Source of the DNA: a virus
Taxonomy: Duplodnaviria > Caudoviricetes
Reading direction: 5' to 3' (one strand)
Virus record (IMG/VR): IMGVR_UViG_3300007734_000735
Coordinates: 1-60,849 of that record
DNA length: 60,849 nt
Shown: positions 6,169-25,268 of the stretch, one piece after another
Layout: every line of letters begins with the position of its first letter
Position numbering within the stretch: the stretch's first letter is position 1
Made by a program: the position numbers and the translations under genes
The notes under the pieces: generated by a model
Seen by the model: the letters and a program-made list of their open reading frames with translations, nothing else
What the model was told of the DNA's origin: nothing
The model's database searches: none

Positions 6169-6196
6169 GGTCTTGTAAGCGAGAGAGAGGCTCACG

Positions 6197-6415: not shown

Positions 6416-6421
6416 TTATTA

Positions 6422-6440
6422 AACCCCAGTAGGGTATACT
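6422..6440 (+). promoter_or_regulatory. Early promoter
   Basis: AACCCCAGTAGGGTATACT. Confidence 0.7.
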
Positions 6441-6469
6441 GGTTATACAAGGTCGAGAGAGGACTGAAA

Positions 6470-6640
6470 ATGACTAAATTCGCCGTCAAATATGAAATCG
6501 AAGTTATCGTCGAAGCGCCTATTGCAAATTGGGCGTCTCAAAAAGTAACCGCACAATTCAATAAGTTCGATTACAGCAATTTTGATTCTGTAACTTCTTT
6601 CAAAAAAATCTCAACAACTGAAGTCAAGGAGGAAATCTAA
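6470..6640 (+). CDS. Hypothetical early protein (56 aa, not in ORF track)
   Basis: Promoter box 6422-6440, RBS GAGAGGA, MTKFAVKYEIEV... Confidence 0.7.
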   Translation: MTKFAVKYEIEVIVEAPIANWASQKVTAQFNKFDYSNFDSVTSFKKISTTEVKEEI

Positions 6641-10005: not shown

Positions 10006-11421
10006 ATGGCAGAAAGACCTGACCTACAAGAGTTTGGCTCAACTGGTTTACGCCGTTCAGGTGGAACAGTTTATGAAGAATTTCTCGTCAATCTTAGAGG
10101 CATACGCGGTGCAAAGACTTACCGCGAAATGGCAGACAATGACCCAACAATCGGGTCAATGTTGTTTGCAGTTGAAAAAGTTATTACTCGTCTTGAATGG
10201 CGTGTAGACCCATATAGCGATGATTCAGCAGACGGTGAAGTAAATGCTAAAGATAAAGAAGTGGCGGCATTTGTCGAGTCGTGTATTCATGACATGTCCG
10301 ATTCATGGGATGCAACACTTTCACAAATTCTTTCAATGCTTGTATTTGGATTTTCTTATCACGAAATTGTTTACAAAGTCCGTAAGGGTGATGGCAATGA
10401 CCCAAAGAAGCGCTCAAAGCATAATGACGGAAAAATTGGTTGGCGCAAAATGCCTATCCGCGCACAAGAAACTTTATTCCGTTGGGAAATCGATGCAGAC
10501 GGTGGAATTCAAGCCATGTTGCAAGTGGACCCATCAACAGGTGGAATACATACAATTCCAATTGACAAGGCTTTGCTTTTCCGTACAGTAACAACAAAGA
10601 ATAACCCTGAAGGTCGCTCCATTCTTCGTAATGCTTATCGTCCTTGGTTTTTTAAGCGTCGCATTGAAGAAATTGAAGCAATCGGTATTGAGCGTGATTT
10701 AGCAGGATTGCCAGTTGCATACCTACCTCCTGAATATCTTTCTTCATCTGCATCAGCCGAACAACAGGCAGTATTAGCATCAATTCAAAGCATCGTTACA
10801 TCTATCAAGCGTAATGAACAAGAAGGCATTGTGATGCCAGCGATGTACGACGATGCTGGACATAAGATGTTTGACTTGCAGTTGCTTTCATCAGGTGGTT
10901 CTCGTCAGTTCGACACAGACAAGATTATCAATCGCTATGACCAGCGCATGGCAATGTCAATCCTTTCAGACTTTATTCTTCTCGGTTCAGACAGAGTTGG
11001 TTCTTACGCTCTCGGCGCATCCAAGATGGATTTATGGTCAATGGCAGTTGATTCAATTGCTAAGAACATCGCTGAGGTAATGAATCAGTACGCTATTCCT
11101 CGTTTGATGAAGTTGAATGGAATGGACATCTCTCGCGCTCCGTACTTAACTTACGGCGAAGTAAGCCATGTTGATTTAACTGAAATCTCAGACTTTGTAA
11201 CTAAGTTGGCTCAGGCTGGCGTTCTCATGCCTGACCCTAAGTTGGAAGATTATCTTCGCGAGTTGGCAGGTCTACCTCCAGCAGAACACGATGGAACAAA
11301 CTTTGGTATGCCTCCTATGCCTGAAGGTGCAGATAGCGCTGAATTTGATGCACCTCCATCTATGGAAGAAGAGTTAGAGATTCCTGAAGGAGCAGAACCG
11401 CTAGACGGCGATGTGGATTAA
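10006..11421 (+). CDS. Portal protein (Mu gp29/DUF935-like)
   Basis: NPEGRSILRNAY, GIERDLAGLP, GSYALG motifs; size and position. Confidence 0.88.
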   Translation: MAERPDLQEFGSTGLRRSGGTVYEEFLVNLRGIRGAKTYREMADNDPTIGSMLFAVEKVITRLEWRVDPYSDDSADGEVNAKDKEVAAFVESCIHDMSDSWDATLSQILSMLVFGFSYHEIVYKVRKGDGNDPKKRSKHNDGKIGWRKMPIRAQETLFRWEIDADGGIQAMLQVDPSTGGIHTIPIDKALLFRTVTTKNNPEGRSILRNAYRPWFFKRRIEEIEAIGIERDLAGLPVAYLPPEYLSSSASAEQQAVLASIQSIVTSIKRNEQEGIVMPAMYDDAGHKMFDLQLLSSGGSRQFDTDKIINRYDQRMAMSILSDFILLGSDRVGSYALGASKMDLWSMAVDSIAKNIAEVMNQYAIPRLMKLNGMDISRAPYLTYGEVSHVDLTEISDFVTKLAQAGVLMPDPKLEDYLRELAGLPPAEHDGTNFGMPPMPEGADSAEFDAPPSMEEELEIPEGAEPLDGDVD

Positions 11422-11423
11422 AA

Positions 11424-12431
11424 ATGCCTTTACACTTTGGCGGAGACGGAAAGCGTCGTAATCCATTAACGGTAGAGGAACAGGCGTTAGCCCGCGTTCT
11501 CTACGATGCTATTCGTAAATCAACTAACACAATTAAGGTTGAAGAGTTAGCGCGTATTATTAAGCGCCTTGACCCTGATTCTTTGAATCGACTTCTTAAT
11601 GCAATATCTGTTGCTGGAAACAGAAAACAGATTGAGGATGCTTTGATGGCATCTATTGACATAGGCGGGCAACAAGCAGTTCAACAGATTCAATCTATTG
11701 CGCCTAAATTAGCCTTACCTGCATTTATTCCTAAGCCTGTAAAAATTACAAACAAGGCTCCTATGGCTAACATGGATTTTACAAAGATTCCTTCTTGGGC
11801 AAGCCCAACGCCACCTCCAGTTACATTCTCATTGTCATTTAATAAAACAAACCCAAACTCTTTAGCCTTTGCATCTAAAAGAGCAGGGCAGTTGATTACT
11901 AGCATTGATGAATTAACCCGCATAGCAATTCGCAAGATTATTATTGATTCATTTAATGAGCAGTTGGATTATCGTGCTACCGCTCGTCGCATTAAAAACA
12001 TCATTGGATTACATCCCAAGTGGGCAGATGCAGTAACAAAGTTTGAAAAGCGTGAGTTAGAGCGTTTAATTAAAAGCGGAATGAAAGAGGCAAAAGCCCG
12101 CCAAGCATCTGCCGCGTCTGCATCTAAATATGCTGACAGATTACGCGGTGCAAGAGCCACGATGATTGCTCGAACCGAGATTCAGATTGCACAAAACGAG
12201 GGACGCTACGAAGGCTGGAAACAAGCCGATGAAGCAGGTCTCATAGACCCGAGTTCAATGAAGATGTGGAAAACAGCCGAAGATGAGCGCACCTGCGATA
12301 TTTGCGCCCCCCTTGATGGTGAGATTGTTCCTTGGAACGGTTTGTTCTCTATCGGGCTTGAGTTGCCTACTGTTCACCCTAATTGCCGTTGCCAAATGTT
12401 GATTCTTCCTCCTGATAGGGGAACGCTATGA
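11424..12431 (+). CDS. MuF / SPP1 gp7-like minor head protein
   Basis: IARTE...W.T..DERTC..C...HPNCRC. Confidence 0.9.
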   Translation: MPLHFGGDGKRRNPLTVEEQALARVLYDAIRKSTNTIKVEELARIIKRLDPDSLNRLLNAISVAGNRKQIEDALMASIDIGGQQAVQQIQSIAPKLALPAFIPKPVKITNKAPMANMDFTKIPSWASPTPPPVTFSLSFNKTNPNSLAFASKRAGQLITSIDELTRIAIRKIIIDSFNEQLDYRATARRIKNIIGLHPKWADAVTKFEKRELERLIKSGMKEAKARQASAASASKYADRLRGARATMIARTEIQIAQNEGRYEGWKQADEAGLIDPSSMKMWKTAEDERTCDICAPLDGEIVPWNGLFSIGLELPTVHPNCRCQMLILPPDRGTL

Positions 12432-14794
12432 CCCTAGTAATTAAATTTGAACCTGGGCTTCGTCCAGTATTGAAGCATGAGCAACATGACCAAGCCACCC
12501 ACGGCTCATGGGCTAACGGTACTTCTGAATCTTCTCTAATCTCGACTGATACACAAATTGCATTTGCTGAAGGGGCAATCAAAGCAACGGATAACATCTT
12601 GAGTCCAAGTGCCTATAAATCTCAGTTAGAAGGCAATCTTAATAGAACATATCCAAAAATTTATTTAGAAGAAGCGGTGAATAACCCCGCTTATCAGGAT
12701 GCTCTTCAAACACATCTTAAAAGTATTGGGTTTCCTGAAACGGTTAAGGTCTTTTCTAGTAGCGCTCAAGAAGGCGAATACTTCCATGGTTCTGTTGCAC
12801 CTTTGTGGGATTCAGGAGCAGTTGGTTATGAGAGTGAAGAATCACCAAAAGAATTTTTGGTAAACCGCTCAGACATTATTGGACTTGGAAAAGTAGCAGA
12901 TAGTGGAGTTTGGTTTAGAAATTCAAAGACAGTCAAAAAGCACCAAGAACACGACCAAAAGACGCACGGTAACTGGGCTACGGGCGGAGAAATGGAGAGT
13001 TGGAATCCCAACGACCCAATTCCAGCAAGTCCTCGAAACGCTGGAGGAATGACTCAGAAGATTTGGGATAACTGGGAACACGGTGTAGATGGAAATCAAT
13101 ATGTTGAGTTGTATCGCCAATACGCGGGAGAAGCACTTGGAATTGCCGTACCTAAAAGCAGTATGGATGTTGGCGGTAACTTAAATTATTTAACACAGCG
13201 GGGCTTTGGTGGCTCTTCAACGGATACGGTTAGAAAACAAGCCGAAACAATCTTGCAAACAATTGCGAATGGTAAACCTGAGCAACCAGCCTTGTATCGA
13301 GGAATGACCGCTACGGATGCAGATGGTCAAGCCTTATTAAATAGCATCACAAAACTCAAGGCTGGAGATACGCTGGATATGCCTTTAGTTTCAACAACTC
13401 GTTCTTTAGGAGTTGCAACATGGTACGCCACAGACCGCTCAACAAGCGGAACAGGCAATGTAATTATGAAAATCCAACCTGGAGCAAAAGGCGTATCTCT
13501 ATCTAAAGAGACAAGCCGTTATCCACAAGACTACGAAGTTATCACAAGCGGTAAATTTGAAGTGGTAAGCGTAAATACGATTCAGAGTTCTTATTGGCAA
13601 CGAGGCGTCCTTGAGCCTCGCAAAATTAGTTACACGGATGGCTCTGAGTCGCACTATGAAGTTGCTACCTACAGCCCTCGTAGATACAGCCCTGAAGAGG
13701 CAAAGACCATTTATGAAACAGTTACTAGCGGTAAATACAAATCCCTAGAAACCCCTACTTTCAAAATAACCAACGATAGGCACAATAATTACCCTGACCG
13801 ACCTAAACTATCCACATGGGAAAAACAACCAGCGAGGGAGTTTACCGTGGTGGAGGTTAAGTTCATTGAGCCTCATGTTGTTAGAAAGGCTGAGTCCAAA
13901 GATTACGGATTAACCTTTGATTCGTTATTTAATAACATCCCATTCATTCGTGAAGAAGATATGGAAAAGCACCAACAAGGTCTACACGACCAGCGTACTC
14001 ACGGTTCATGGGCTATGGGCGGGGCTGGGGCTGATATTACTGACGAGTTAGATAAAGTGTTTTTTAACAATAAGTTGAATGTCAAAGAGAGTAAAATTTT
14101 TCCTGGAAGTTTAAGAATACCTACTCAAGCGGAAATTGCTCGCGCTGGCATGAATGACGAAACAATCAAACTAATCGAGGAAATGTCTCAAAAACAAATT
14201 GAAAGCGGGCAAGCATACGGAGACAACGCTCTAAAGATTATTGCTGAACGCCAAGGGTTTACTGGCAAACCAAAAACAGTTGCAACTATAGAAGATTTAC
14301 AGAAGATTCAAAGCACCGAGGCTGGCATTTTGGTATATCGCGGAGTTACTGATTATTCAAGAGCGCAAGCATCAGGCGGTGGTTCAGTTCAACCAACTTA
14401 CACAGCCGAACAAGCATTGACTGATTTTAGAGAAGGTGAGTATTTTGGTGGCTGGGGCGTGTTTGGGAATGGAACCTATACAACTCAACGAATAGATGAG
14501 GCTGTTTCCTATTCAGAAACTATGGATTTAGATAATGGAAAACTTGGTAATGGTCGTGTAATGGCAATGCTAATTCCTAAAAATGCAAAGGCGCCTAGCG
14601 AAACTCTTGTAAAAAGTATTGTAAAAGATATGGTTTATGGCGGAGAACCCAGCCATCGCAATAACATTGGCAGAAGGCTTGCCTCCATGGGTTATCAGTA
14701 TTACGATGCTGGTCATGTTCAAAATGATAAATATGGAACTTATGTAATCCTTGATAGGTCAATGCTTACAGTTGCAGAAAAGGCGGTGGGTTGA
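12428..14794 (+). CDS. Tagged polyprotein 1: three KH..HDQxTHGxW modules, two with ART-like domains
   Basis: Tags at 12473, 12938, 13967; ALYRGM..VSTT..QDYEV and LVYRGV..FGNGTY..YVILDR. Confidence 0.7.
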   Translation: MTLVIKFEPGLRPVLKHEQHDQATHGSWANGTSESSLISTDTQIAFAEGAIKATDNILSPSAYKSQLEGNLNRTYPKIYLEEAVNNPAYQDALQTHLKSIGFPETVKVFSSSAQEGEYFHGSVAPLWDSGAVGYESEESPKEFLVNRSDIIGLGKVADSGVWFRNSKTVKKHQEHDQKTHGNWATGGEMESWNPNDPIPASPRNAGGMTQKIWDNWEHGVDGNQYVELYRQYAGEALGIAVPKSSMDVGGNLNYLTQRGFGGSSTDTVRKQAETILQTIANGKPEQPALYRGMTATDADGQALLNSITKLKAGDTLDMPLVSTTRSLGVATWYATDRSTSGTGNVIMKIQPGAKGVSLSKETSRYPQDYEVITSGKFEVVSVNTIQSSYWQRGVLEPRKISYTDGSESHYEVATYSPRRYSPEEAKTIYETVTSGKYKSLETPTFKITNDRHNNYPDRPKLSTWEKQPAREFTVVEVKFIEPHVVRKAESKDYGLTFDSLFNNIPFIREEDMEKHQQGLHDQRTHGSWAMGGAGADITDELDKVFFNNKLNVKESKIFPGSLRIPTQAEIARAGMNDETIKLIEEMSQKQIESGQAYGDNALKIIAERQGFTGKPKTVATIEDLQKIQSTEAGILVYRGVTDYSRAQASGGGSVQPTYTAEQALTDFREGEYFGGWGVFGNGTYTTQRIDEAVSYSETMDLDNGKLGNGRVMAMLIPKNAKAPSETLVKSIVKDMVYGGEPSHRNNIGRRLASMGYQYYDAGHVQNDKYGTYVILDRSMLTVAEKAVG

Positions 14795-15660
14795 TGCTTA
14801 CTCCAGTCCAGTCTCAGCGCTATGCCCAATTGGTAAACAACTTTAAGGAAAAAGAATTCTATGCTTACCATGAGCATCTTCTCGCGGGCGGGAGAGTTGA
14901 AGATTTCTTTGACAAGATGGAAAAGCACGGTACCCATGACCAAAAGACACATGGTTCATGGGCTGATAGTAATTCTTATGATGAGGTCGAGGCAAAGAAT
15001 GAAATCCTTATGGATGAATGGCGAAAAAAATATGGGATATTGAGTGAGTATTTAGAATCCAAAGGCTTGACCCGCTCATGGAATGAAATTCAAGCCGACC
15101 CCAAAGCAAAAAAGATGCAAGAGGCAGTTGATGCAATTTGGAAAAAAATGCAAACAAATCAGAATAAATTTTATGATGAACATTTTGAAAAGAATGAAAC
15201 TGAGGATTTTGATAGGTTAAGAGATAAATATGTTGTTGCCGACACGCCAACTTTGAAAATGAACAAGCAATTGCGTGAGGGTGGGGGACTTACCCAAAGA
15301 GTTAAAGATGCTGACGCCTTGTGTGCCATGGGGGTCGTTAAAGAACGAGTTGGTGTTTACAGGGGAGCATTTCTTCCAAAAGAACTAATCGATACAATTA
15401 AAGTTGGAACTTCATTTACCGATAAAGGTTTTCAGTCTACCGATGTAGATAAATCTTCTGCTCAGTTTTATGCAAGAAGTAGAAAAGAAGGTGGGGCGCA
15501 GGGAGAACTTGTTTTATTCCGTTATACATTAGAAAAGGGATTAAACGCCATTGATGTTAGTTATGGAGAGGTTGTAGTTCAACGAAATGCAACGATAACT
15601 GTAACTAAAAAAACTAAAAGTGGCGAATATACAATTATTGATGCGACGGTGAATAAATGA
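14791..15660 (+). CDS. Tagged VIP2-like ADP-ribosyltransferase
   Basis: Tag at 14923; MNKQLR, VYRG, DKGFQSTD, GEVVVQR. Confidence 0.75.
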   Translation: MMLTPVQSQRYAQLVNNFKEKEFYAYHEHLLAGGRVEDFFDKMEKHGTHDQKTHGSWADSNSYDEVEAKNEILMDEWRKKYGILSEYLESKGLTRSWNEIQADPKAKKMQEAVDAIWKKMQTNQNKFYDEHFEKNETEDFDRLRDKYVVADTPTLKMNKQLREGGGLTQRVKDADALCAMGVVKERVGVYRGAFLPKELIDTIKVGTSFTDKGFQSTDVDKSSAQFYARSRKEGGAQGELVLFRYTLEKGLNAIDVSYGEVVVQRNATITVTKKTKSGEYTIIDATVNK

Positions 15661-16397
15661 ATAAAGAATTACGCGTCACAATGGATGTTGAAGATTTCCT
15701 TTCAATGTTTTCACAAGTTGATTCTTTTGAGAAGCATCAAGAACATGACCAGCAAACTCACGGCAATTGGGCTTCAGGTAATTATGAGAATCTTGCCGAT
15801 TGGTTTAAAGATGAAGTAAAAGTCTTTGCGTCCGAGACAGATAAAGAAGTTTATTTCATGACTAAACTATTTAGCCAACGCCTCAAAGGTTTCACAGAAA
15901 TGGCTTATCCTGAGTTCTCGGGAGCAATAAATAATTATGAAAGTCGTCTTGGTTATGACATGAATGAGGCTTTGCGTGACCCTCAAATAAGTGAAGATGG
16001 CTATAAATCAACTATTGATTTACTTGATAAGGCGATAGAGACCGCTCCTGCATTGAGTGAAGAGTTGGTTGCTTACCGAGGAGTTAAAGGCAACGGATTA
16101 AAGTTTTTTGAAAATCTTAAAGTTGGAGATACTTACCAAGACAAAGGCTACACATCGACAACAATTGATGCTGGAGTTGCTCAACAATTTGGCGGACAAC
16201 AACCGTATTATGACGGTTTAGTTTTCCGTATGAAGTTACCCGCTGGTACAAAAGGAATCTTTCCTGCGGGCTATCACGAACCTGTAAACGGTTGGACACC
16301 ATCTACGACTGAGGCTGAGTTCTTATTACCGAGAGATAGTAAATTTACTATTGTTGCCCAGCGTGGCAAGGTTTGGGATGTAGAGTACAAACCATGA
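15657..16397 (+). CDS. Tagged VIP2-like ADP-ribosyltransferase (ExE motif)
   Basis: Tag at 15732; MNEALR, AYRGV, DKGYTSTT, EAEFLLPR. Confidence 0.85.
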   Translation: MNKELRVTMDVEDFLSMFSQVDSFEKHQEHDQQTHGNWASGNYENLADWFKDEVKVFASETDKEVYFMTKLFSQRLKGFTEMAYPEFSGAINNYESRLGYDMNEALRDPQISEDGYKSTIDLLDKAIETAPALSEELVAYRGVKGNGLKFFENLKVGDTYQDKGYTSTTIDAGVAQQFGGQQPYYDGLVFRMKLPAGTKGIFPAGYHEPVNGWTPSTTEAEFLLPRDSKFTIVAQRGKVWDVEYKP

Positions 16398-18985
16398 ACC
16401 TAGAGAAGTTCCAACACGCATCCTTGAACGGTCTTTCACTTGTACTGGAAAAGCACGGCTCCCACGACCAAAAGACGCACGGTAACTGGGCAAACCTCAC
16501 AGTTGATGGGCAAACAGTTGAAGGCAAAACCATCACGGGCTTGATAGATAAGTTAAGCGAGAAGAAAACTCCAGGATTTAGTATCGACATCCGCACTAAG
16601 CAATCTGCCAAAGATGGCTTTATTGCCTCTGATGTAGGAGCCGAGAGAGTGCTTGATTTCGCCCCTCTGAAGGCTTCTAGGGCGAGTTTGAGGACTGCTT
16701 TGAAGGATTACATCAACGACCATGCTGAGTTGCTTGATAACAAGGGTAGTTTCTTTGGCGCTTGGGTAGAGCAAGGAAAACTTTACTTAGATGTCTCAAG
16801 AAGGTATAATTCTCGGTCAGAGGGTGTACGAGCAGGATTTAGAAACGAACAAAAAGCAATCTACGATGTAGTCAATGACTCGTACATTTACATGAAGGAT
16901 GAGGTCGATGAGCGAACAAACAAAGCCCGTCTTGGTGGAAACTCCGAAGCCAGTCAAGGAAATGACGGAGAAGGAGAAGGACGCCTTCGTGGACGAAATT
17001 TTGCAAGCGATAGAGGGCAATCTCTAAATCGCCATGTCTGCCTTGGCAGATACACAGTACAAAAACACCGAGAAGGCGAGCATGACCAAGCCACACATGG
17101 CAATTGGGCTGGGGATAGATACCCTGTTGATTCAGTTAAGAGCGCTAGAGATGGCGCAAAAGAATACGCTTTCAAAAAAGGCTTAAAACCTGACGAAACA
17201 ATTGATTACACAAAGGTTGTTGCTAATCGCGAACGAGCATCACGCATTGCTGACATCTATGAAACTTTGCCAAAGAAAGATGTTGAAGCAATTGATGAGT
17301 ATGAGGCGCTGGCATCTGAAGTAGAAGAGCAATTCGACTTTATGACCAAGACTCTTGGGGTCAAGGTTGAGTTCGTTGCTACTGACCCATACAGGACATC
17401 TCAGGAAATGTTTCAAGATGTCAGCCGTGGAAACCTTAAAGTTTTGCAAACAGAGACAACAGGCGCACATCCACTTTTCTCAGATGCTCAAAACAATAAA
17501 TTCCGAGCAGTTCACGATTACTTTGGACACGCGGCTACTGGTCGCGGATTTGGTCAAGATGGCGAAGAGTCCGCATGGGTACATCACTCTCAAATGTTTA
17601 CAGAGAAGGCTCGAGCGGCTCTAACTACTGAGACCCGAGGACAAAATTCATTCTTCAATAATCGCGGAAAACAGTTCGCTGACCAAAAGGTTGCCTTGCT
17701 TCCCGAAGAGTTTTGGGCTGTCCCAGCAACATTTCAGAAGATTAAAGTTATTCGTTTTGCCGCTGGATTGAAGCCAGTAATTAAGCACGAACAACACGAC
17801 CAATCTACTCATGGTAGTTGGGCGCGAGGCAATACGGCTGAAGAGGACGCCTTAATTAACGAAATGGAAGGCGTTGGTCCTTCGCTACAAGATTTAGAAA
17901 ATGCTCTGACCCCCGCCGAACAGCCTGACTACACCGACCTAAAAGATTATGTTAAGAATGATGCGGGTATGTACGAGGCAGCAATTGAGGGAATTGAAGA
18001 AAGAATGAAAGAGCGTTATCAGAATTTAACCGAGGATGAATACAATAAAATAAAAGAACGAGAATTAGATATAATGGTTGAAGAATACATTGATAATGAT
18101 GATGGAACCATTGCACAATTATGGCAAGAGCAAAACGGTACTGAGGAATTTAACGCTGAAGAGTTACATCCTTTCTTTGATGAGGTTTATGCCATGAGCC
18201 ATGATGTCTTAAATGCTCAGGGTGAAGTTGCCACAACTCTTAGTTCATCAACAAATAACATTTATCTTGATGGTGAAAGATTAGTTGTAACTGGCGAAAT
18301 TATGGATGATGCTGGTAATTGGGCTGGAGAGTTCCAACGCGGTTTCTTCAAAAGCCAAGATAGAGAAGGCAACGAAATTTGGGCTGTTGAGCATGACTTA
18401 TTCAAAATGGATGATGAATACGCAGGAGTTGGATTTGGCTCAAAGTTTATAGCCCGACAAGAGGCTTGGTATACCGCTGTGGGAATAGGCAGAATTGATG
18501 TAGGCACCGCTTGGGATGGCGCTCGACATTGGGCTAAATCAGGGTATGACTTCGACGAAAGAGGTATGCGCCAAAATGTAAATGAATTGATAAAGGGAAG
18601 AGCATTTAATCCTGATGATTTTGCTGAAGGTTCAGCAAACCGCCTTGAGTTTGATTCTTTAATTTCAAAAATGGTTACTGATTACGACCCAAGTTCGAGG
18701 TCATTTAATTCAACAAAACCAATTAGATTAGATGATTTTCCTATCCCAAACGATTTCTTGATGATTGGCTATAAAGATAGAGTTCAAATAGGCACTAATC
18801 AAATTACAGGAAAGCCTGTCTATTCATGGGCTGGTGCAAGATTGCTGAACAATCTCAACATGAAGTACCAAAAGGGCTTAAGCAAGGAAGGTCGTTCAAT
18901 CACTCAGGGTCCAATTGACCGCGATGGCGATGGCTTGGTTTATGACGGCACCGCTCGCGAAAAGCCCGCTCCTACGGTAAACTAG
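16394..18985 (+). CDS. Tagged polyprotein 2: two unassigned domains plus C-terminal GNAT acetyltransferase
   Basis: ATGA-coupled start 16394; tags at 16451, 17063, 17783; YAGVGFGSKF...GARHWAKSGYDF. Confidence 0.7.
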   Translation: MNLEKFQHASLNGLSLVLEKHGSHDQKTHGNWANLTVDGQTVEGKTITGLIDKLSEKKTPGFSIDIRTKQSAKDGFIASDVGAERVLDFAPLKASRASLRTALKDYINDHAELLDNKGSFFGAWVEQGKLYLDVSRRYNSRSEGVRAGFRNEQKAIYDVVNDSYIYMKDEVDERTNKARLGGNSEASQGNDGEGEGRLRGRNFASDRGQSLNRHVCLGRYTVQKHREGEHDQATHGNWAGDRYPVDSVKSARDGAKEYAFKKGLKPDETIDYTKVVANRERASRIADIYETLPKKDVEAIDEYEALASEVEEQFDFMTKTLGVKVEFVATDPYRTSQEMFQDVSRGNLKVLQTETTGAHPLFSDAQNNKFRAVHDYFGHAATGRGFGQDGEESAWVHHSQMFTEKARAALTTETRGQNSFFNNRGKQFADQKVALLPEEFWAVPATFQKIKVIRFAAGLKPVIKHEQHDQSTHGSWARGNTAEEDALINEMEGVGPSLQDLENALTPAEQPDYTDLKDYVKNDAGMYEAAIEGIEERMKERYQNLTEDEYNKIKERELDIMVEEYIDNDDGTIAQLWQEQNGTEEFNAEELHPFFDEVYAMSHDVLNAQGEVATTLSSSTNNIYLDGERLVVTGEIMDDAGNWAGEFQRGFFKSQDREGNEIWAVEHDLFKMDDEYAGVGFGSKFIARQEAWYTAVGIGRIDVGTAWDGARHWAKSGYDFDERGMRQNVNELIKGRAFNPDDFAEGSANRLEFDSLISKMVTDYDPSSRSFNSTKPIRLDDFPIPNDFLMIGYKDRVQIGTNQITGKPVYSWAGARLLNNLNMKYQKGLSKEGRSITQGPIDRDGDGLVYDGTAREKPAPTVN
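16908..17027 (+). CDS. Nested out-of-frame 39 aa protein (candidate immunity)
   Basis: GAGGT RBS then MSEQTKPVLVETPKPVKEMTEKEKDAFVDEILQAIEGNL*; host frame there is a G/R-rich linker. Confidence 0.5.
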   Translation: MSEQTKPVLVETPKPVKEMTEKEKDAFVDEILQAIEGNL

Positions 18986-18989
18986 CCTT

Positions 18990-19136
18990 ATGAAGAGACA
19001 AGAGAGATTAGACGCCTTATCGAAACTCCATGCCTCCATGCCTGTTGAGATGGAAGGTTTGCCTGACGATAACGAGGTCGCTTTCTTGGATAAGGTAGTA
19101 GAACAAAAACTAACTACGGTTCAGGAAACTAAATAA
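18990..19136 (+). CDS. 48 aa protein, probably leaderless (candidate GNAT antitoxin)
   Basis: TAAACT 6 nt before ATG; MKRQERLDALSKLH... Confidence 0.55.
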   Translation: MKRQERLDALSKLHASMPVEMEGLPDDNEVAFLDKVVEQKLTTVQETK

Positions 19137-19167
19137 CAGTTGTAAATCTATCCGCTATCATTGCAAC

Positions 19168-21375
19168 ATGGCGGATATAGCCCCAAAGTTAATTTCTTTA
19201 AGCGTTGAGAAACTACTCGCGCTTCATGAGCGTATTCATAAGTCTGAAGCCTCTTCAGCAACAATCGAGGTTCACCACACAATTCTCAATGAGTTGGCTC
19301 GTCGCAAGATGGAGGCTCCCAAAGATAATTGGGACGACTTTGAAATTCTTGTTGATTCCATTAACGATGTAGACCTGACATCCTTTGGCTCATCCTTGCC
19401 AGCCGAAATGGTTGCAGAAGTTATTAAATCTAGCGGTAGCAATGTCGGCAATGTGCAGACTTTCCTCACCTCGCAAGGTTATGAAATGCGAATTGAGCCG
19501 ATTGAACTAGACCCTATCGAGAAGATGATTCGCGAAGAAGATGGCGAGTTCACAGTTTATGATTCAACGGGACGACGCAGATTTGGCACTTATCCATCAA
19601 AGAAAAAGGCTGAAGAGCGCCTTGCACAAATTGAAAGATTTTCTAAAGCAGATAACACTCCACCCAAGGCAGTTCGCTCCGCCGCTCGTCGCGCACTTGA
19701 TTGGATTGGCGAAGGTAAGGCTGGTGGAGGATTTACTTCAGTTGGTCGCGCCCGCGCATCGCAGTTGGCTTCAGGAGAATCTGTCTCGTTAGAAACTCTC
19801 AAGCGAATGAAATCTTTTTTCTCACGCCATGAAGTAGATAAGAACGCGCTTGGATTTAGCCAAGGAGAAAAGGGTTATCCATCTCCAGGTCGCGTTGCTT
19901 GGGATGCTTGGGGCGGAGATGCAGGATTCGCATGGGCTGAGTCCATGGTTGCTCGCGCCGAAAGAGAAGAAGAAGTTGCAAAACATAATCCTGGCAAACA
20001 CGACCAAAAAACTCATGGCTCTTGGGCTGATGGCATTGCAGATGCAATCAACAACGGCGAACACCCAATGGTTGAAAAAGAAAATGTTTCGGCGTTTCTA
20101 CTTAAAGCATCAACCCGCACAGACCACCCTGACTTAACTGAATTGAGCATTGAAGGAACATTGCTCTACGGCGATGAAGGTATGGGAATTGCCCGTAAGG
20201 ACATGCCGCAAATTCCTGGCAAAGAACGCGCTCGTTTCTTAGAAGAGATTGAAAAGAGCGATGGCATTACAGTTGAAAAAGAGAAGGTAGACCCAACAAC
20301 CTTAAAACCAATTCAAAAAGAAATCTCTGCCGCTCGCTCAGGTGCTATCTATAAGAAGTTTCAAGAGGATGGCGAGATTCCAAAGAACGAACGCATACTT
20401 ATTTCTAAAGATGGTTTTGTAATCGATGGACACCATACATGGGGCGCCGCGGTTGCTTTTGCTTTTGATAATCCTGGAACTGAGTTGCCTGTCTATCGTT
20501 TATCTGTCACAGCAAAAGAAGCGTTAGCCATCTCATCAAAGTGGTCGAAGGATAATGGTTTTGAGGGTCAAGCAATTGACGCGAAAGAGCCAGCCAAGAA
20601 AAACCTCACATGGCAAACACTTACAAAGCATGGAAATCATGACCAGCGCACCCATGGCTCATGGGCGAATAACATGGTTTCAGACATTGAACCTGAGCAG
20701 GGACAATCAAAAGAAGCCATTGCACTTGCTCGCGCAGTTCGAGAAAAAGCAGTTGCGGCTGAGCCAGTAATCACAAAATTAGTTGAAGGTATTGCAGAGC
20801 AATCAGGTGCAAAACTTGAAGGTCTTTCACAACGCATTAAATCAACAGATTCTCTTGCACGAAAGATTGACCAAGATGCCGAGCAGGGATACCAAGGAGA
20901 TAGAAAGAAAGCGGCTGAAGAAATCTCTGATGCAAACCGTTACACAATCTCAGTCAATGACACAGATTATTTAGATACACTAAATTCTGCTGTTACTGCA
21001 TTTGAGGCAACTGGGTGGAAAGTCCGAGTTAAAAACTTTTGGCAGTCAGGCGACCCTTACGATGGTGTGAACATCAAGGCAGAGCGTGATGGCATTAAAG
21101 TTGAGTTGCAGGTACACACTCCAAAGTCATACCAAACCAAAGAAAAAGCCCTTCACGACATTTACAAGGAATACAGAAAATCTATCGATGATGCAGTCCG
21201 TCGTAGCAATTGGGACAAGATGGTAAGCATTGCTAAGCGGGTTCCTCGCCCAGCCAATTACGCTACCGTTCTTGGAATTGGTTCATTAGTTATTCAGCAA
21301 TTTGAGACCGCTCAACAGGCTGGCTTGATAAAATCAACTGGGGTTGGTAAACTATCCCATGAGGGGAGGGCATAA
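19168..21375 (+). CDS. Tagged polyprotein 3: small head-associated domains, ParB/Srx-like domain, RelA/SpoT small alarmone synthetase
   Basis: Tags at 19981, 20626; VIDGHHTW; RIKSTDSLARKI..DANRY..YDGVN..VELQVHT..H. Confidence 0.8.
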   Translation: MADIAPKLISLSVEKLLALHERIHKSEASSATIEVHHTILNELARRKMEAPKDNWDDFEILVDSINDVDLTSFGSSLPAEMVAEVIKSSGSNVGNVQTFLTSQGYEMRIEPIELDPIEKMIREEDGEFTVYDSTGRRRFGTYPSKKKAEERLAQIERFSKADNTPPKAVRSAARRALDWIGEGKAGGGFTSVGRARASQLASGESVSLETLKRMKSFFSRHEVDKNALGFSQGEKGYPSPGRVAWDAWGGDAGFAWAESMVARAEREEEVAKHNPGKHDQKTHGSWADGIADAINNGEHPMVEKENVSAFLLKASTRTDHPDLTELSIEGTLLYGDEGMGIARKDMPQIPGKERARFLEEIEKSDGITVEKEKVDPTTLKPIQKEISAARSGAIYKKFQEDGEIPKNERILISKDGFVIDGHHTWGAAVAFAFDNPGTELPVYRLSVTAKEALAISSKWSKDNGFEGQAIDAKEPAKKNLTWQTLTKHGNHDQRTHGSWANNMVSDIEPEQGQSKEAIALARAVREKAVAAEPVITKLVEGIAEQSGAKLEGLSQRIKSTDSLARKIDQDAEQGYQGDRKKAAEEISDANRYTISVNDTDYLDTLNSAVTAFEATGWKVRVKNFWQSGDPYDGVNIKAERDGIKVELQVHTPKSYQTKEKALHDIYKEYRKSIDDAVRRSNWDKMVSIAKRVPRPANYATVLGIGSLVIQQFETAQQAGLIKSTGVGKLSHEGRA

Positions 21376-22081
21376 TAAATTGCGATACTTTGTAAACTTT
21401 TACCGTAATAAGCCACATACTCTATGGCGTTTTGATGTTGAGCCTGACCGTGTTCTCGAAGAGCGCTGGGATGGCTTGTCATGGACTCCCACGACCTACA
21501 TCGCCGAGTACCTCATAGATGGCGAAGCAAACATTGATGAGATTACTCCTGAGTTGGCTATGAAAACTTTTCCAGTTGCTTTCAATGATGTTGCTAAATC
21601 TATTGGCGCTTATGAAGTTTCTAAGGCTGAGGGCGAGAAGCGATACACACTAGGGGCTATGTACATCCCTGACCGCCTTGATGCACACAATGAGTGGACA
21701 GATGCCGAGGAGTTGCAAAGAGCAGTTTGGGATTATGTCCGCAGTAATGACCGCCGTATTCGACTACAACACAATCGCGAAATTGTTGCAGGTGAATGGG
21801 TTGAAGTTATGTCATTCCCATACGAATTAACAGTTCCAATTACAACCCCAAGTGGAATTATGGTCAATCACACTTATCCTGCGAACACGGTTTTCCTTGG
21901 TGTTATTTGGGAGGAATGGGCATGGGAGAAGATTCAACGCGGAGAGATTCTTGGCTATTCAATTGGTGGACGAGCAGAGCGCCTATATGTGGACATGGAA
22001 AAGAACGACCCAACTGTTACCGATGTGCATGTTGATACAATTATGAAACCATCGAAAAAGAAGCCAAAGGAAGCCAAATGA
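21359..22081 (+). CDS. XkdF-like prohead serine protease with extra N-terminal domain
   Basis: YIPDRLDAH..EELQRA..LQH..WEKIQRGEILGYSIGG; start uncertain (ATG 21359 or TTG 21380). Confidence 0.8.
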   Translation: MRGGHNKLRYFVNFYRNKPHTLWRFDVEPDRVLEERWDGLSWTPTTYIAEYLIDGEANIDEITPELAMKTFPVAFNDVAKSIGAYEVSKAEGEKRYTLGAMYIPDRLDAHNEWTDAEELQRAVWDYVRSNDRRIRLQHNREIVAGEWVEVMSFPYELTVPITTPSGIMVNHTYPANTVFLGVIWEEWAWEKIQRGEILGYSIGGRAERLYVDMEKNDPTVTDVHVDTIMKPSKKKPKEAK

Positions 22082-22482
22082 AAGACAAAAAGATTCTCAA
22101 AGAACTCCGCAATGGTCCTATGAAAAACATGAAGGACGAGGAGTACGCCATGATTGAAGAAGAAGTCAATCAAAAGGGAATCAAAGGTCTTAAAGGTTAC
22201 GCCAAGTCAATGATTGAAAAGGCTATGCGAGATATGGCTTATTCAATGAAAAAGGCTCTTTCTGTTTCAACAGGTGACATGGTTTCTTGGAATTCATCAG
22301 GTGGCATGGCTACAGGCAAGATTGTCCGTATTGTGCGTGAGGGCAAAATCAATGTTCCTGATTCAAGTTTTGAGATTGAAGGAACCGAAGATGACCCAGC
22401 CGCTTTGATTCAGTTGTACCGCGATGGCAAGCCAACTGAGACAAAAGTTGGACATAAGGTTTCAACACTAAAAAAAGCCTAA
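22078..22482 (+). CDS. Tudor/SH3-like (DUF2945-type) head-region protein; -1 frame extension to 22715
   Basis: GDMVSWNSSGG..GKI..GTEDDPA..VGHK.STL. Confidence 0.7.
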   Translation: MKDKKILKELRNGPMKNMKDEEYAMIEEEVNQKGIKGLKGYAKSMIEKAMRDMAYSMKKALSVSTGDMVSWNSSGGMATGKIVRIVREGKINVPDSSFEIEGTEDDPAALIQLYRDGKPTETKVGHKVSTLKKA

Positions 22483-22711
22483 GCCTAGACAAACATCTAG
22501 GCACCGTTCACGACCAAAAAACTCACGGTGGAAAATACAACACCGATGATGCTGAGGGTGAGGATAGTTCTGAACCAAAGAACTTCAGGGGCAAAAAGCC
22601 AAAGGTAAGTTACGACGAAAACGACACAGACGGTGAGTTCGACAATAACGCCGATGACCCAAAATGGATGGATGACATGGACATCTTGAGACCACCTGCT
22701 AGAAACAAGCG

Positions 22712-22975
22712 ATGAAAACAATTATTGATAGCACAATTGAGATTCTGAGTTCAATGAATCTCAAGGCAAATAAGGTCACAACGCCTCCTGGCTATGCAGG
22801 AATTCAAATTGATTTACCCAACGACTCCCAAGCCTTTTTTGTGTGGAGCAAAATGGATGACGATGACTTCCATTTCAGGACAGCGCGTTTTTGGGCAAAC
22901 GACAATCCTTTTTCAATGTGGATTTGTCCAAACTTGCCCGAGGCTCTAGCCCAAACGAGGGTTTTAATAAACTAA
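22712..22975 (+). CDS. Hypothetical protein
   Basis: 87 aa; ATGA overlap with the frameshift-extension stop. Confidence 0.65.
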   Translation: MKTIIDSTIEILSSMNLKANKVTTPPGYAGIQIDLPNDSQAFFVWSKMDDDDFHFRTARFWANDNPFSMWICPNLPEALAQTRVLIN

Positions 22976-23078
22976 CAAAAGGGTCAAATTACGCTTGTGG
23001 TATTCTTCGTATGTTTAGACCCGATGTAATTTCTTAGCGCGTTGCTAAGGGACTATATCTATTTCGTTAGGAGTCACA

Positions 23079-23876
23079 TTGGCTGGTCGTACTCGTAAGA
23101 TGGTGAATTTAGCCATCGAGGAAACTAGCGGGGTAGACCATCCCGCTCATCTACACGAAGGTTGGCTTGTAATGAAGTCAGCCGAAGAATCTGAAGTTCA
23201 GAGGGTTTTAGACGAATCGCTCACCGAGGAGGACTCCACAATGGAGGATACATCTACCACGGCTACTGAAGAGCAGGTTGTAAATCCTACTGAGGAACTA
23301 ACCATCGCTAAGGCTCGCATCTCTGAACTTGAAGAGGCATTAGCCAAGGCTTCTGCGGACGCTGAAATGTCCGAAGAAGATAAGAAAAAGAAAAAGATGG
23401 AAGAGGAATCCTCTGAGGAGATGGACTACATGAAGTCCGCACCTGAGTCAGTCGTCAAAATGATTGAGAACTTCCGCAAGCAAGCAGAAGAAGCAACCGC
23501 AGAACTTAAAAAAGAACGCGATGCTCATGCTGATGCAGAAGCAGTTGAAAAAGCAAAGAGTTGGGCAAACCTCAATCTCGATGCAGAAAAAGTTGGTCCA
23601 GCACTACGCCGTCTATCAAATGTAGACGCAGAACTAGCAAAGTCAGTTGAAGAACTACTTGCTTCAGTCAATGCACAGGCTGAATCAGCACAAATTTTTG
23701 CGGAAATCGGCAAATCCGCAGACTTCAAATCAGGAAATGCTTATGAGCGTATGACTACGCTTGCTAAGTCAGCCGTTGAAGAGGGTGTAGCAAAGTCATT
23801 CGAGCAAGCGCTCGCTGATGTTGCTACAAAGAACCCTGACCTTTACAGCCAATACCTATCCGAGAAAGGTGCCTAA
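23079..23876 (+). CDS. Capsid scaffolding protein
   Basis: EETSGVDHPA..LVMKS start, acidic coiled coil, C-terminal NPDLY; upstream of capsid genes. Confidence 0.75.
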   Translation: MAGRTRKMVNLAIEETSGVDHPAHLHEGWLVMKSAEESEVQRVLDESLTEEDSTMEDTSTTATEEQVVNPTEELTIAKARISELEEALAKASADAEMSEEDKKKKKMEEESSEEMDYMKSAPESVVKMIENFRKQAEEATAELKKERDAHADAEAVEKAKSWANLNLDAEKVGPALRRLSNVDAELAKSVEELLASVNAQAESAQIFAEIGKSADFKSGNAYERMTTLAKSAVEEGVAKSFEQALADVATKNPDLYSQYLSEKGA

Positions 23877-23879
23877 ACC

Positions 23880-24275
23880 ATGGCATACGAAATCTCCAAT
23901 TACTCGGTAAAGGTCACTCTCGTTGCAGCGGCAGACCTTTCCAGTAAGCAGTACACATTCGTCAAGTTGGATTCAGATGGCAAAGTTGCGGCTGCTTCAG
24001 GCGCAACTGACATCCCAATTGGCGTACTACAAAACGCTCCAACCGCAGGACAAGAAGCAGAAGTGCTTGTTGTTGGCGGTACAAAGGTTGTCGCTGGTGC
24101 GGCAATTGGCGAGGGCGCACTTGTTGGAACAGGTGCTACAGGCAAGGCAGTTGCTCTTGTTGCTGGTACAGATACCACCAAGTATGTTGTTGGAACACTT
24201 CTAACCGAATCTGCGGCAGATGGAAACATCGTCACAGCCGTCATCAACTGCGCTAATCCAGGCAGAGCGGCATAA
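23880..24275 (+). CDS. Capsid decoration/cement protein (DUF2190-like)
   Basis: Small Ala/Gly/Val-rich protein between scaffold and MCP. Confidence 0.75.
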   Translation: MAYEISNYSVKVTLVAAADLSSKQYTFVKLDSDGKVAAASGATDIPIGVLQNAPTAGQEAEVLVVGGTKVVAGAAIGEGALVGTGATGKAVALVAGTDTTKYVVGTLLTESAADGNIVTAVINCANPGRAA

Positions 24276-24290
24276 GGGGGAACATAACAA

Positions 24291-25268
24291 ATGCCACAGC
24301 CACACATTAACTCCGTCCATGTGGACGCAATTCTGACTAACATCTCAGTTGCATACCTACAAAATCAGGACAATTTCATTGCAGACAAAGTATTCCCAGT
24401 AATTCCTGTGGATAAGAAGTCTGACAAGTATTTCACTTACACCAAGAACGATTGGTTCCGCGATGAGGCTCAACGCCGTGCGCCTGGAACTGAATCTGCT
24501 GGTGGCGGATACAACCTATCAACAGGCACATACTCAGCAGATGTATGGGCTTTCCACAAGGATGTAGACGACCAAACAACTGCAAACGCAGACGCACCTT
24601 TGAACCCTCTTCGTGAGGCAACAGAGTTCGTAACTCGTCGCTTGATGCTCCGTCGTGAACTTCAGTTCGTAACTGATTTCTTCACAACAGGTGTATGGGC
24701 AGACGATGTAACTGGCGTCTCAGGCGCTCCATCTTCAGGTCAGACAAAGCAATGGTCAGACTACACAGCATCAGACCCAATTTCAGACATCGAAGCGGCA
24801 AAGGCTGAGATTCTTGGAAACACAGGTATGGAAGCAAACACTCTTGTTCTTGGATACGATGTATTCAAGTCACTCAAGAATCACCCTGACTTGGTAGACC
24901 GTATCAAGTACACATCGGCTCAGACAATTACAACAGACATGATTGCGGCAATGTTCGACATTCCTCGCGTCATGGTTGCTAAGGCTGTCAAGGCTACAAA
25001 CAACGAGGGTGCATCAGAGGCTTACGGCTTTGCTTATGGCAAAGGCGCACTTCTAACACATGTTGCTCCAAACCCAGGACTACTAACTCCTTCTGCTGGA
25101 TACACATTCTCATGGACTGGCGTATCAGGCGGACTTGGACAGACAATTGGAACATCACAGTTCCGTATGGAATCAATCAAGGCGGACCGTATCGAAGCAG
25201 AAATGGCTTTCGATAACAAGGTAATTGCATCTGACCTCGGTTATTTCTGGAACACAATCGTCGCTTAA
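24291..25268 (+). CDS. Major capsid protein
   Basis: LTNISVAY..FIADKVFP, W.D..SDPI.DI; followed by terminator. Confidence 0.88.
   Translation: MPQPHINSVHVDAILTNISVAYLQNQDNFIADKVFPVIPVDKKSDKYFTYTKNDWFRDEAQRRAPGTESAGGGYNLSTGTYSADVWAFHKDVDDQTTANADAPLNPLREATEFVTRRLMLRRELQFVTDFFTTGVWADDVTGVSGAPSSGQTKQWSDYTASDPISDIEAAKAEILGNTGMEANTLVLGYDVFKSLKNHPDLVDRIKYTSAQTITTDMIAAMFDIPRVMVAKAVKATNNEGASEAYGFAYGKGALLTHVAPNPGLLTPSAGYTFSWTGVSGGLGQTIGTSQFRMESIKADRIEAEMAFDNKVIASDLGYFWNTIVA

Follow-up and report, generated by a model that had tools for sequence, protein, structure and literature searches.

Does a small gene that lies directly after an effector domain, in another reading frame of a continuing phage polyprotein, encode an immunity partner for that domain? 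This question is raised by the window, the whole 60,849-nucleotide stretch of a Caudoviricetes virus (IMG/VR record IMGVR_UViG_3300007734_000735) that was analysed here. The original prediction had read from it a toxin-then-immunity layout, with immunity peptides that were nested (a 39-codon ORF with its own ribosome-binding site), free (a 48-aa ORF with its own -10 element) or fused, as short leaders before a tag, to the next polyprotein.

A polyvalent-protein cassette with two small genes

The nested ORF is contained in ORF 16394-18985, the ATG of which, at 16394, overlaps the preceding stop codon (ATGA), and which begins at TTG 16373 in the ORF listing. It runs in the +1 frame from ATG 16908 to the TAA at 17025-17027, with the product MSEQTKPVLVETPKPVKEMTEKEKDAFVDEILQAIEGNL, and the ribosome-binding site claimed for it is present. 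The features considered are as follows:

16394..18985, plus strand: polyvalent head protein of three modules, namely module 1, module 2 (phrog_3170) and module 3, with a GNAT-like core
16490..16921, plus strand: module 1, an alpha/beta domain after which the nested peptide always comes (AF2 pLDDT 83.7)
16895..16905, plus strand: Shine-Dalgarno-like AAGGATGAGGT, just 5' of the nested ATG 16908
16908..17027, plus strand: 39-aa gene nested in the polyvalent-protein ORF (+1 frame), for a putative acidic strand-plus-helix partner peptide
16922..17062, plus strand: main-frame linker, rich in G/R/S/D/N and dual-coded to 17027, open and not conserved in sequence
17063..17110, plus strand: tag KHREGEHDQATHGNWA, which opens module 2; main-frame conservation is back at HVCLGRY just 5' of it
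17831..18982, plus strand: module 3, a helical N-terminal part plus a GNAT-fold core (AF2 pLDDT 83.1)
18978..18983, plus strand: -10-like TAAACT, 6 nt before ATG 18990, with no Shine-Dalgarno sequence and overlapped by the stop of the upstream ORF
18990..19136, plus strand: 48-aa small gene, conserved and syntenic, between module 3 and the phrog_2859-like gene
19168..21375, plus strand: downstream polyvalent protein (phrog_2859) with two tags and a -10-like TATCAT 6 nt before its ATG

Ten such tags were found, all of them inside 12428-21375. Pfam recognised MuF (PF04233) in a separate gene (11424-12431), ART (PF03496) and, downstream, an XkdF-type protease, and a weak RelA_SpoT match was obtained among the cassette domains. 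Disparate effector domains are thereby combined in a late-gene protein beside the MuF and portal genes, and in this the cassette resembles the polyvalent proteins presented in the main text of Iyer et al. 2017 (PMC5512222), with their tag-separated ART, GNAT-like, RelA/SpoT-like and unknown domains. A term search of that main text returned neither "overlapping" nor "linker", and no partner or immunity genes inside genes; our full-text literature searches turned up no account of a partner gene lying inside the gene of a polyvalent protein.

Module 1 gave no Pfam match, no Foldseek match at E<=0.001 and a best Z of 3.6 in a wide VIA search, and these searches revealed neither a recognisable toxin fold or family nor a clear catalytic signature. 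Its family comprises 5728 representative proteins at E<=0.001, and stand-alone relatives of near length are few (4). PDB sequence searches with modules 2 and 3 gave nothing. The structural model of module 3 was matched by Foldseek to GmvT, TacT, AtaT and other GNATs (probability 1.00, E 6e-4 to 5e-3), with about 98 aligned columns superposed at an rmsd of about 3.5 A; the GNAT module that had been predicted holds at the level of the fold (AF2, Foldseek), whereas Pfam was silent. A protein search with the downstream gene returned domain-level matches only, a cluster look-up gave no useful names, and a DNA search of cultured-phage records gave no match.

The short leaders that were said to sit after ART domains do exist, and an ART domain was identified by Pfam at 15657-16397 (E 4e-16) and nowhere else, but ART was not confirmed for the module before the leader of 14791. 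The ART protein of 15657-16397 has a relative in the 14794 ORF (BLASTP E 1.5e-7, five-sequence database). That the nested, free and fused peptides form one immunity family was considered and rejected: when compared with the six frames of the whole window, the peptide profile matched the nested ORF only (E 1e-21), and the idea was dropped because the leaders of 14791, 15657 and 16394 and the 48-aa ORF all scored E above 20. Since the sliding scan also found ordinary main-frame coding in these leaders, no support is left for a fusion of immunity peptides to the following polyprotein. For the nested ORF and the 48-aa ORF, nothing usable was obtained from Pfam, PHROGs or the ESM Atlas; a DUF7167 match of a small ORF (E 0.026; 3/25 members) was dismissed as noise.

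Selection on the nested frame and its initiation signals

A codon alignment of the window with 12 loci was analysed in bins of 15 codons. In the two bins that span 16922-17011, the entropies of main-frame positions 1, 2 and 3 were 0.97/0.47/0.21 and 1.00/0.61/0.17, which identifies main-frame position 1, that is, nested position 3, as the wobble site, whereas outside these bins the most variable site was main-frame position 3. Within the cassette (11424-22081), wobble periodicity moves to another frame only at the nested ORF: a sliding scan of its eight ORFs flagged only 11 overlapping windows, all in 16907-17032. The BLOSUM sum of the nested frame exceeded that of the main frame in 10/10 pairwise comparisons, with nested identity equal or higher, and the order of the frames was reversed in all 10 pairs over the 39 codons upstream. 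Frame-specific conservation among homologues, which the original prediction had named as a check, was thus found for the nested frame, with a phase flip limited to this short stretch.

The openness of the main frame was examined by synonymously reshuffling the peptide codons in 20,000 trials per sequence. Only 0.04-0.56% of the reshuffles left the main frame open, whereas all 11 distinct real sequences are open, and T was found at the nested wobble site before an AA/AG/GA codon in 0 of 168 cases. The main frame over the nested ORF is actively kept open and is otherwise unconstrained in sequence. Its description as off-frame filler was borne out by the phase flip, the reshuffling and the BLOSUM comparison alike. 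Judged from these alignments, the nested ORF demonstrates true dual coding, in which a selected coding sequence is overprinted on a linker.

In the listed upstream sequences of 47 distinct homologues, GGAGG, AGGAGG or GAGG-type motifs stand 5-12 nt 5' of the starts (41 ATG, five GTG and one TTG), and similar Shine-Dalgarno sequences are common to many other genes of the same phage. The nested ATG and stop are kept in 19/19 aligned loci. In comparative terms, the nested ORF has what characterises an embedded gene, namely a conserved open frame, purifying selection and initiation signals of its own.

It is extremely improbable that the nested ORF is untranslated and that its conservation reflects an RNA or DNA element or chance. 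Lake and river metagenome DNA contigs from public runs cover the stretch, and the one RNA library holds only partial, diverged contigs over it, as such a reading would allow; however, amino-acid replacements in the nested frame are conservative, three-base periodicity follows the nested phase, the Shine-Dalgarno sequence, start and stop persist down to 27-33% identity of module 1, and homologues were called as free genes, with 76 small called proteins matching the nested peptide. A programmed +1 (or -2) ribosomal frameshift, which would make the peptide an alternative C-terminal tail of module 1 without initiation of its own, is also very unlikely. Internal Shine-Dalgarno sequences stimulate frameshifting in prfB and dnaX, one locus (L101) encodes the peptide in the frame of module 1, and three high-GC loci (L077, L081 and L102) have a +1 frame that extends open well upstream without a conserved ATG. 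Against this, a start codon follows a Shine-Dalgarno sequence in all 47 distinct peptides, and in several lineages the ATG comes straight after a nested-frame stop, as in R*MSEP of L018. No slippery motif common to the junction types ..GATGAGCGAACAAACAAAGCC.. and ..ACAGGAGGAACAGGTAATG.. was seen by eye. In addition, the main-frame stop of L080 and L093 falls within the overlap and the peptide gene is therefore separate; L080 has the layout of an ordinary overlapping gene pair (ATGTCTGA).

Module 1 and the role of the nested peptide

At 88 of 101 loci, a peptide HMM match lies directly 3' of module 1; 87 of these matches are in the +1 frame and one, that of L101, is in frame 0. After 18 duplicate contigs had been removed, the peptide followed module 1 in 70 of 83 distinct contigs. 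Two loci (L011 and L017) are without module 2, and their module 1 is 27-33% identical; as both keep the +1-frame ORF, it is the upstream domain, and not the downstream one, that the nested ORF accompanies. A small ORF immediately 3' of the effector-coding region is the arrangement of a toxin-immunity pair. Furthermore, four MAG loci hold stand-alone peptide copies without module 1, module 3 or the phrog_2859-like gene within 4 kb. In three of these four bacterial islands, which carry integrases, relatives of both small proteins adjoin each other, and the copies belong to a conserved backbone next to varying R-M cargo. Such stand-alone copies would be expected of orphan immunity genes.

Complex modelling lends support to an interaction between the peptide and module 1. 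The median ipSAE was 0.78 over three runs, and the best of three controls reached 0.01; of 157 solved complexes, 116 attained that ipSAE mark, as did 2 of 215 mismatched pairs, counts that hold only roughly because our own alignments were used. The score expresses the confidence of the model and is no measurement. At least 94% of the contacts were common to the runs, with a partner pLDDT of at least 83. In the predicted interface of about 100 contacts, the peptide wraps module 1 by strand addition and helix packing: its N-terminal strand is added at residues 86-94, the edge strand of module 1, and its helix, which is capped, lies against the long helix of that module (residues 64-84). Module 1 has 14 invariant or nearly invariant residues, of which only G90, W92 and S103 belong to the modelled interface; Y99, D101, Q121 and D126 are absent from the interface list. 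With this composition, the modelled interface fits a structural role of the partner no less well than the plugging of an active site.

We tentatively favour, with a probability of about 0.45, the explanation that the nested gene is translated on its own and that its product is likely to be an immunity-like masking partner of module 1. ATG 16908 would initiate behind its own Shine-Dalgarno sequence inside the mRNA for a polyvalent protein delivered by the virion, to give the 39-aa acidic peptide, with no frameshift. The older unit may have been module 1 with a small partner gene: there are phages in which the protein ends with module 1 and an ordinary overlapping gene downstream encodes the partner. 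In the lineage of the window, more modules would have been fused behind module 1, reading through the partner gene in the other frame, so that it became overprinted by a linker that needs only to be open. In the producing cell, the peptide would keep module 1 shielded or inactive up to the packaging of the polyprotein, and at ejection it would be stripped off or stay behind; the stand-alone copies in bacterial integrase islands would then act on incoming module 1. The 48-aa ORF, after the GNAT-fold module, is a second, separate conserved small gene that may do a similar job.

An immunity role of the peptide is plausible, with module 1 assumed to be a toxin. The toxin-then-immunity layout of the original prediction agrees with the nested coding, the linkage to module 1, the modelled binding and the island copies, but module 1 itself matched no toxin fold or family in our searches, a result with which toxicity would still be compatible. 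Several observations tell against immunity: an in-frame peptide such as that of L101 is unusual for it, the ART modules of the same cassette are without such a partner gene, and copies in a conserved island backbone beside varying R-M cargo could equally mean satellite-like hijacking. The main rival explanation, which we consider less probable than not by a clear distance, is that the peptide is a structural or chaperone subunit and no inhibitor, either a C-terminal element supplied in trans or an adaptor for folding, packaging or docking. The wrap-around character of the modelled interface, which includes the invariant G90 and W92 of module 1, is consistent with such a subunit, as are the location of the nested gene in the head-morphogenesis module and the natural in-frame fusion in L101 and probably L087. 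A peptide-like tail on an unrelated Zn-ribbon-like protein (L107, E 1.9e-4) would be expected of a portable docking element. However, a structural subunit does not readily account for island copies that have no module 1 within 4 kb, and it is not obvious why the 69 contigs with an out-of-frame peptide should not simply encode such a subunit in frame.

The 48-aa gene and comparison with known systems

The 48-aa ORF proposed after the GNAT-fold module proved to be a real gene. In eight ungapped homologues, its variable sites are distributed over the codon positions as 13:6:28, and a homologous ORF of 48-55 aa occurs at the same place in 50/50 distinct relatives examined. The claim that it has its own -10 element fared less well: other clades have TATAAT at the place of TAAACT, but a promoter consensus scan found 5 sites versus 4.8 +/- 2.5 in shuffles. 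Scanning viral contigs with the 48-aa profile recovered close relatives only. Homology between the nested and the 48-aa families was not demonstrable (hhalign probability 9.8%); their C-terminal halves are alike by eye.

This small protein is a putative antitoxin-like peptide for module 3, or else it may serve the phrog_2859-like gene or have a regulatory or assembly role, and we regard the assignment as doubtful. Its gene lies directly 3' of module 3 in 48 of the 50 distinct relatives, the other two loci being cut short, the solved structures nearest to module 3 include GNAT toxins held by C-terminal peptides of their antitoxins, and its relatives adjoin the peptide gene in most of the MAG islands, as noted above. 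On the other hand, module 3, the small ORF and the downstream gene are never apart in the data, and the linkage is therefore not assignable to either neighbour. In TacAT-type systems, the antitoxin is encoded upstream and carries a DNA-binding domain. The locus is like TacAT, AtaRT and GmvAT in that the module 3 core superposes on the toxins and a small helical protein is encoded alongside; it is unlike them in that the small ORF is downstream and matches no DNA-binding domain, or indeed any family, in Pfam or PHROG, and in that module 3, with a likeness at fold level only, is part of a virion polyprotein. A more far-reaching proposal, which is unlikely on present evidence, is that both small proteins are escaped antidotes that islands of freshwater bacteria use against injected polyvalent effectors. 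Separately, the polyprotein linker would be a frame that arose de novo by fusion through a pre-existing partner gene.

Out-of-frame embedded genes include lambda Rz1 within Rz, phiX174 E within D, and comS within srfA of Bacillus subtilis. As in those cases, a short gene initiated on its own is contained entirely in a longer gene on the same strand, and both frames are used. By contrast, the constrained and seemingly older frame here is the small one, while the long frame serves as a linker that has only to stay open; the predicted target of the small product is the domain encoded directly 5' of it in the host gene; and the arrangement recurs in about 70 viral contigs.

Closer to the proposed function are polymorphic toxins of the MuF type, which have immunity ORFs downstream (Jamet et al. 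2017, PMC5576092), and Bxa, a prophage ART toxin that is neutralised by its immunity protein Bsi through physical binding (PMC11699363). The likeness consists of effector-bearing head-module proteins next to portal and MuF genes and a small ORF directly after the effector. Unlike in those systems, the partner here is nested in a continuing polyprotein, the MuF domain is in a separate gene, and the effector, module 1, is only putative.

Polyvalent virion proteins are thought to be weapons of phages in the first minutes of infection. With the present locus, a widespread and uncharacterised domain family of several thousand representative proteins gains a dedicated small partner gene, one that is often missed by gene callers because it lies inside a larger gene, and a concrete effector-partner pair becomes open to test. 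The locus is also a clean natural case of dual coding, with the long frame as the unconstrained one, and makes it worth while to search the linkers of other multi-domain phage proteins for hidden genes. It points, too, to genes of bacterial islands whose products may act on the proteins that phages inject. If the small proteins are indeed escaped antidotes, they would constitute a layer of defence against proteins delivered by virions, namely module 1 and perhaps the GNAT module.

A tagged polyvalent cassette in the head module

The window is rated by CheckV as a complete 60.8-kb virus record, and its head module comprises the genes within 10006-25268, where five large ORFs follow the MuF gene:

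10006-11421, 471-aa ORF, putative portal by its expected position
11424-12431, MuF (PF04233)
12428-14794, large ORF
14791-15660, large ORF
15657-16397, large ORF, the only one with a Pfam ART match (PF03496, E 4e-16)
16394-18985, large ORF with modules 1 (16490-16921), 2 (17120-17740) and 3 (17831-18982)
16908-17027, nested 39-aa ORF, +1 frame of the preceding ORF
18990-19136, 48-aa ORF
19168-21375, large ORF, phrog_2859-like
after the five large ORFs, XkdF-type protease (PF14550)

The large ORFs are modular, and each module begins with the tag KHxxHDQxTHGxWA, present in ten copies (12485, 12950, 13985, 14935, 15744, 16463, 17081, 17795, 19999 and 20638) and nowhere in the window outside 12428-21375. 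At the same position, relatives carry other short motifs, such as NPYHDERGRF (locus L097), DPDQPRDADGKW (L090) and NPEQARDDHGRW (L094); these tags and their counterparts may be cleavage or packaging signals. The architecture agrees with the class that Iyer et al. 2017 (PMC5512222) described as 'polyvalent proteins'. Module 2, the best conserved portion of its ORF, corresponds to phrog_3170 (E 3e-48), with an invariant stretch around FRAVHDYFGHA and no match to a Pfam family or a PDB sequence. Relatives of the 870-aa protein are encoded by 22 viral contigs (51-91% identity), and a nucleotide-level search of cultured-phage DNA gave no match to the window. Lake and river metagenome runs of several studies hold contigs with DNA near-identical or related to 16400-19400; contigs from one RNA library over this region are partial and diverged.

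The original prediction proposed a toxin-then-immunity layout, with immunity peptides nested, free or fused to the next polyprotein as short pre-tag leaders behind ART domains. The leaders of the ORFs starting at 14791, 15657 and 16394 do exist, but as immunity peptides they found no support, since they lack a peptide-profile match and show ordinary main-frame evolution. As for their placement after ART domains, the domain was confirmed in the ORF starting at 15657, is a likely assignment in the 14794 ORF and was unconfirmed in the module before 14791.

Two reading frames in the linker between modules 1 and 2

The nested ORF was found as described, with its ATG at 16908 and its TAA at 17025-17027. 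When the linker (16922-17062) was translated in three frames, the +1 frame was open in 19 of 19 loci with conserved ATG and stop, and its peptide varied conservatively (e.g., MTEQTKPFMVEVPIPIKDMTKEEKDAFIEKILKAIEENR in L015). Across the same 19 loci the main-frame linker varied radically, and main-frame conservation picked up at H[VI]CLGRY..KH, immediately 3' of the nested stop. When 13 sequences were aligned by codon, main-frame position entropies were 0.97/0.47/0.21 and 1.00/0.61/0.17 in the two bins of 16922-17011, so that the wobble site there belongs to the nested frame; in the other bins variability peaked at position 3, except in bin 18035, where positions 1 and 3 were about equal (1.12 vs 1.10). 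In a sliding scan of eight ORFs (11424-22081), just 11 windows were flagged; all of them fall within 16907-17032, with no phase flip elsewhere in these ORFs. The BLOSUM sum was higher for the nested than for the main frame in 10 of 10 comparisons against the window, with nested identity equal or higher in all ten, whereas the main frame came out ahead in all ten over the preceding 39 codons. Both the phase flip and the BLOSUM comparisons thus place the nested frame under selection, and the suspicion that the main frame opposite it is filler is borne out to the extent that the long frame is merely kept open.

That openness is itself constrained. T at the third position of a nested codon creates a main-frame stop whenever the next codon begins with AA, AG or GA, and only 0.04-0.56% of synonymous reshuffles (20,000 per sequence) left the main frame open; it was nevertheless open in 11 of 11 distinct sequences, with T at 0 of 168 such risk wobble sites. 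Module 2 has no main-frame start codon between 16900 and 17070 and must therefore be reached by reading on from module 1. Dual coding is thus genuine in this region: the small frame is constrained, and the long frame needs only openness. One clade (L041-L070, at about 2892-3038 in each locus) has a nested ORF of 49 aa that extends into the DNA for the conserved main-frame HVCLGRY..KH, so that both frames are constrained there.

The nested gene has start signals of its own. The start codons of 47 distinct peptides were ATG in 41, GTG in five and TTG in one, with GGAGG-type motifs upstream. In a distant group (L011:6440-6470; L086, L091, L093, L095 and L097), a conserved main-frame motif, TGGTG, at the module 1 end is encoded as ACAGGAGGAACAGGT, which includes a perfect AGGAGG, and these codons thus double as the Shine-Dalgarno sequence of the nested gene. 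The main frame stops four bases past the peptide ATG in L080 (ATGTCTGA) and within the overlap in L093, where module 1 and peptide are ordinary overlapping genes in both cases. A frameshift model has little room, as nested-frame stops lie immediately before the ATG in several lineages (R*MSEP and others). We regard the nested gene as translated, with a probability of roughly 0.9.

The nested peptide as a probable partner of module 1

In L011 and L017, a distant module 1 (27-33% identity) is fused straight to module 3 and the +1-frame ORF is retained at its end (MSEKIEVVKLPDISKMTDEEIDQYAQQLWAKLEKPSK); because module 2 is absent, the nested ORF goes with module 1. The module 1 profile matched 5728 representative proteins at E<=0.001, of 112 to >4000 aa, and none of the 19 short relatives scanned belonged to a Pfam family. 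A viral-contig scan with module 1 added 80 loci. At 88 of 101 loci the peptide HMM matched immediately 3' of module 1, sharing the frame of module 1 in L101 and lying in the +1 frame at the other 87; since 18 of the 101 duplicate contigs already counted, this corresponds to 70 of 83 distinct contigs. The 13 loci without a match were as follows:

L072, L073: module 1 itself cut
L077, L081-L083, L102 (high GC): +1-frame ORF of similar pattern, missed by the profile
L087: in-frame tail
L074, L075, L079, L089, L092: nothing seen

The linker is likely a new frame, formed when an older two-gene unit of module 1 and its partner was read through upon fusion of further modules, an order of events that we infer; read-through of the partner gene would have turned the linker into that frame.

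Module 1 has a confident predicted fold (pLDDT 83.7), for which Foldseek found no solved fold at E<=0.001 and a wide VIA search gave a best Z of 3.6. Its complex with the peptide (25-row alignment A4 for module 1, alignment A5 for the peptide) scored a median ipSAE of 0.78 in three runs, whereas none of three controls exceeded 0.01. Among solved complexes, 116 of 157 pass the tool's mark, as do 2 of 215 mismatched pairs; these counts are a rough guide here because custom alignments were used. The runs had at least 94% of contacts in common, and partner pLDDT was at least 83. In the model, peptide residues 4-17 run along module 1 strand 86-94, and the peptide helix 24-39 packs on helix 64-84; the invariant M19-T20 makes no contact and looks like a helix cap. 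The model supports binding, and the nested product probably binds module 1.

What binding would accomplish is a separate matter, as the modelled complex does not tell apart a peptide that inhibits, chaperones or completes the fold of module 1. An immunity-like role is a tentative reading, and a structural or chaperone role a somewhat less likely one. The latter stays alive because the modelled interface includes just three of module 1's conserved residues, G90, W92 and S103, and because the peptide is fused in frame to module 1 in L101.

Embedded out-of-frame genes are known, such as Rz1 in Rz, E in D of phiX174 and comS in srfA. Also known are small immunity ORFs after MuF toxins (PMC5576092) and a prophage ART toxin with a binding immunity protein (PMC11699363). 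Full-text literature searches and a term search of the main text of PMC5512222 returned no partner gene that is nested in a polyvalent-protein linker, conserved in about 70 contigs and also present as free copies in bacterial islands.

The 48-aa ORF and free copies in bacterial islands

The predicted 48-aa ORF was likewise found in place, and its substitutions are of coding type (13:6:28). All 50 distinct relatives, drawn from 80 loci (seven unanchored by pattern, one without upstream DNA, identical repeats skipped), carry a homologue of 48-55 aa between module 3 and the phrog_2859-like gene. Module 3 was detected before it in 48 of them, the remaining two loci being truncated; because the three elements never separate, the small ORF can be assigned to neither neighbour as partner. 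The GNAT assignment of module 3 held at fold level (pLDDT 83.1): its core matches GNATs with probability 1.00 and E from 6e-4 over about 98 columns, the top matches being the toxins GmvT, TacT and AtaT complexed with antitoxin peptides, which makes an antitoxin-like role of the 48-aa product conceivable. Neither this ORF nor the next gene has a Shine-Dalgarno sequence. Exactly 6 nt before their ATGs are the -10-like hexamers TAAACT (within 18978-18989) and TATCAT (within 19156-19167), respectively, and other clades have TATAAT at this position before the small ORF, so that a leaderless transcript is possible. The proposed -10 element stands as a hexamer, but a consensus scan gave it no statistical support. 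These motifs suggest leaderless transcripts within the late operon; the 48-aa ORF could instead be coupled to the stop 4 nt before it.

Among called proteins, the peptide profile matched 76 small ones (38-78 aa), each either unnamed or labelled 'hypothetical'. A genome scan placed the peptide gene in four MAG loci, three of Actinomycetota (including Ca. Planktophila) and one of Polynucleobacter; module 1, module 3 and phrog_2859-like genes are all absent within 4 kb of it. These loci (L104-L107) are small integrative islands around 3900-6600. L105 and L106 have a common backbone of an integrase (PF00589), a 290-aa protein with weak likeness to a DnaD-like loader (phrog_186, E 0.0023), the peptide gene and a KWSE-type small gene, and differ in restriction-modification cargo; in L107, DNA methylases adjoin the peptide gene. 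In three of the four, the 48-53-aa family profile matches an ORF a short way downstream (E 5.5e-5, 2.5e-4 and 3.3e-4 among 700 ORF pieces). In L105 and L106 this ORF comes immediately after the peptide gene, and in L107 it follows a Zn-ribbon-like gene; the two small-ORF families, separated by 2 kb in the phage, are thus neighbours in these islands. The 123-aa Zn-ribbon-like protein (L107:4062-4430) has a C-terminal peptide-like tail (..EGMSDSDIDEYAKKLWGKL..; partner-peptide profile E 1.9e-4), and in L104 the peptide gene is directly followed by the gene of a 311-aa protein that shares its N-terminal Cys motif. The island copies fit orphan antidotes against injected effectors and, equally well, satellite-like island genes that hook onto helper-phage proteins. 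The four loci may represent islands of freshwater bacteria with a satellite-like or a defence character.
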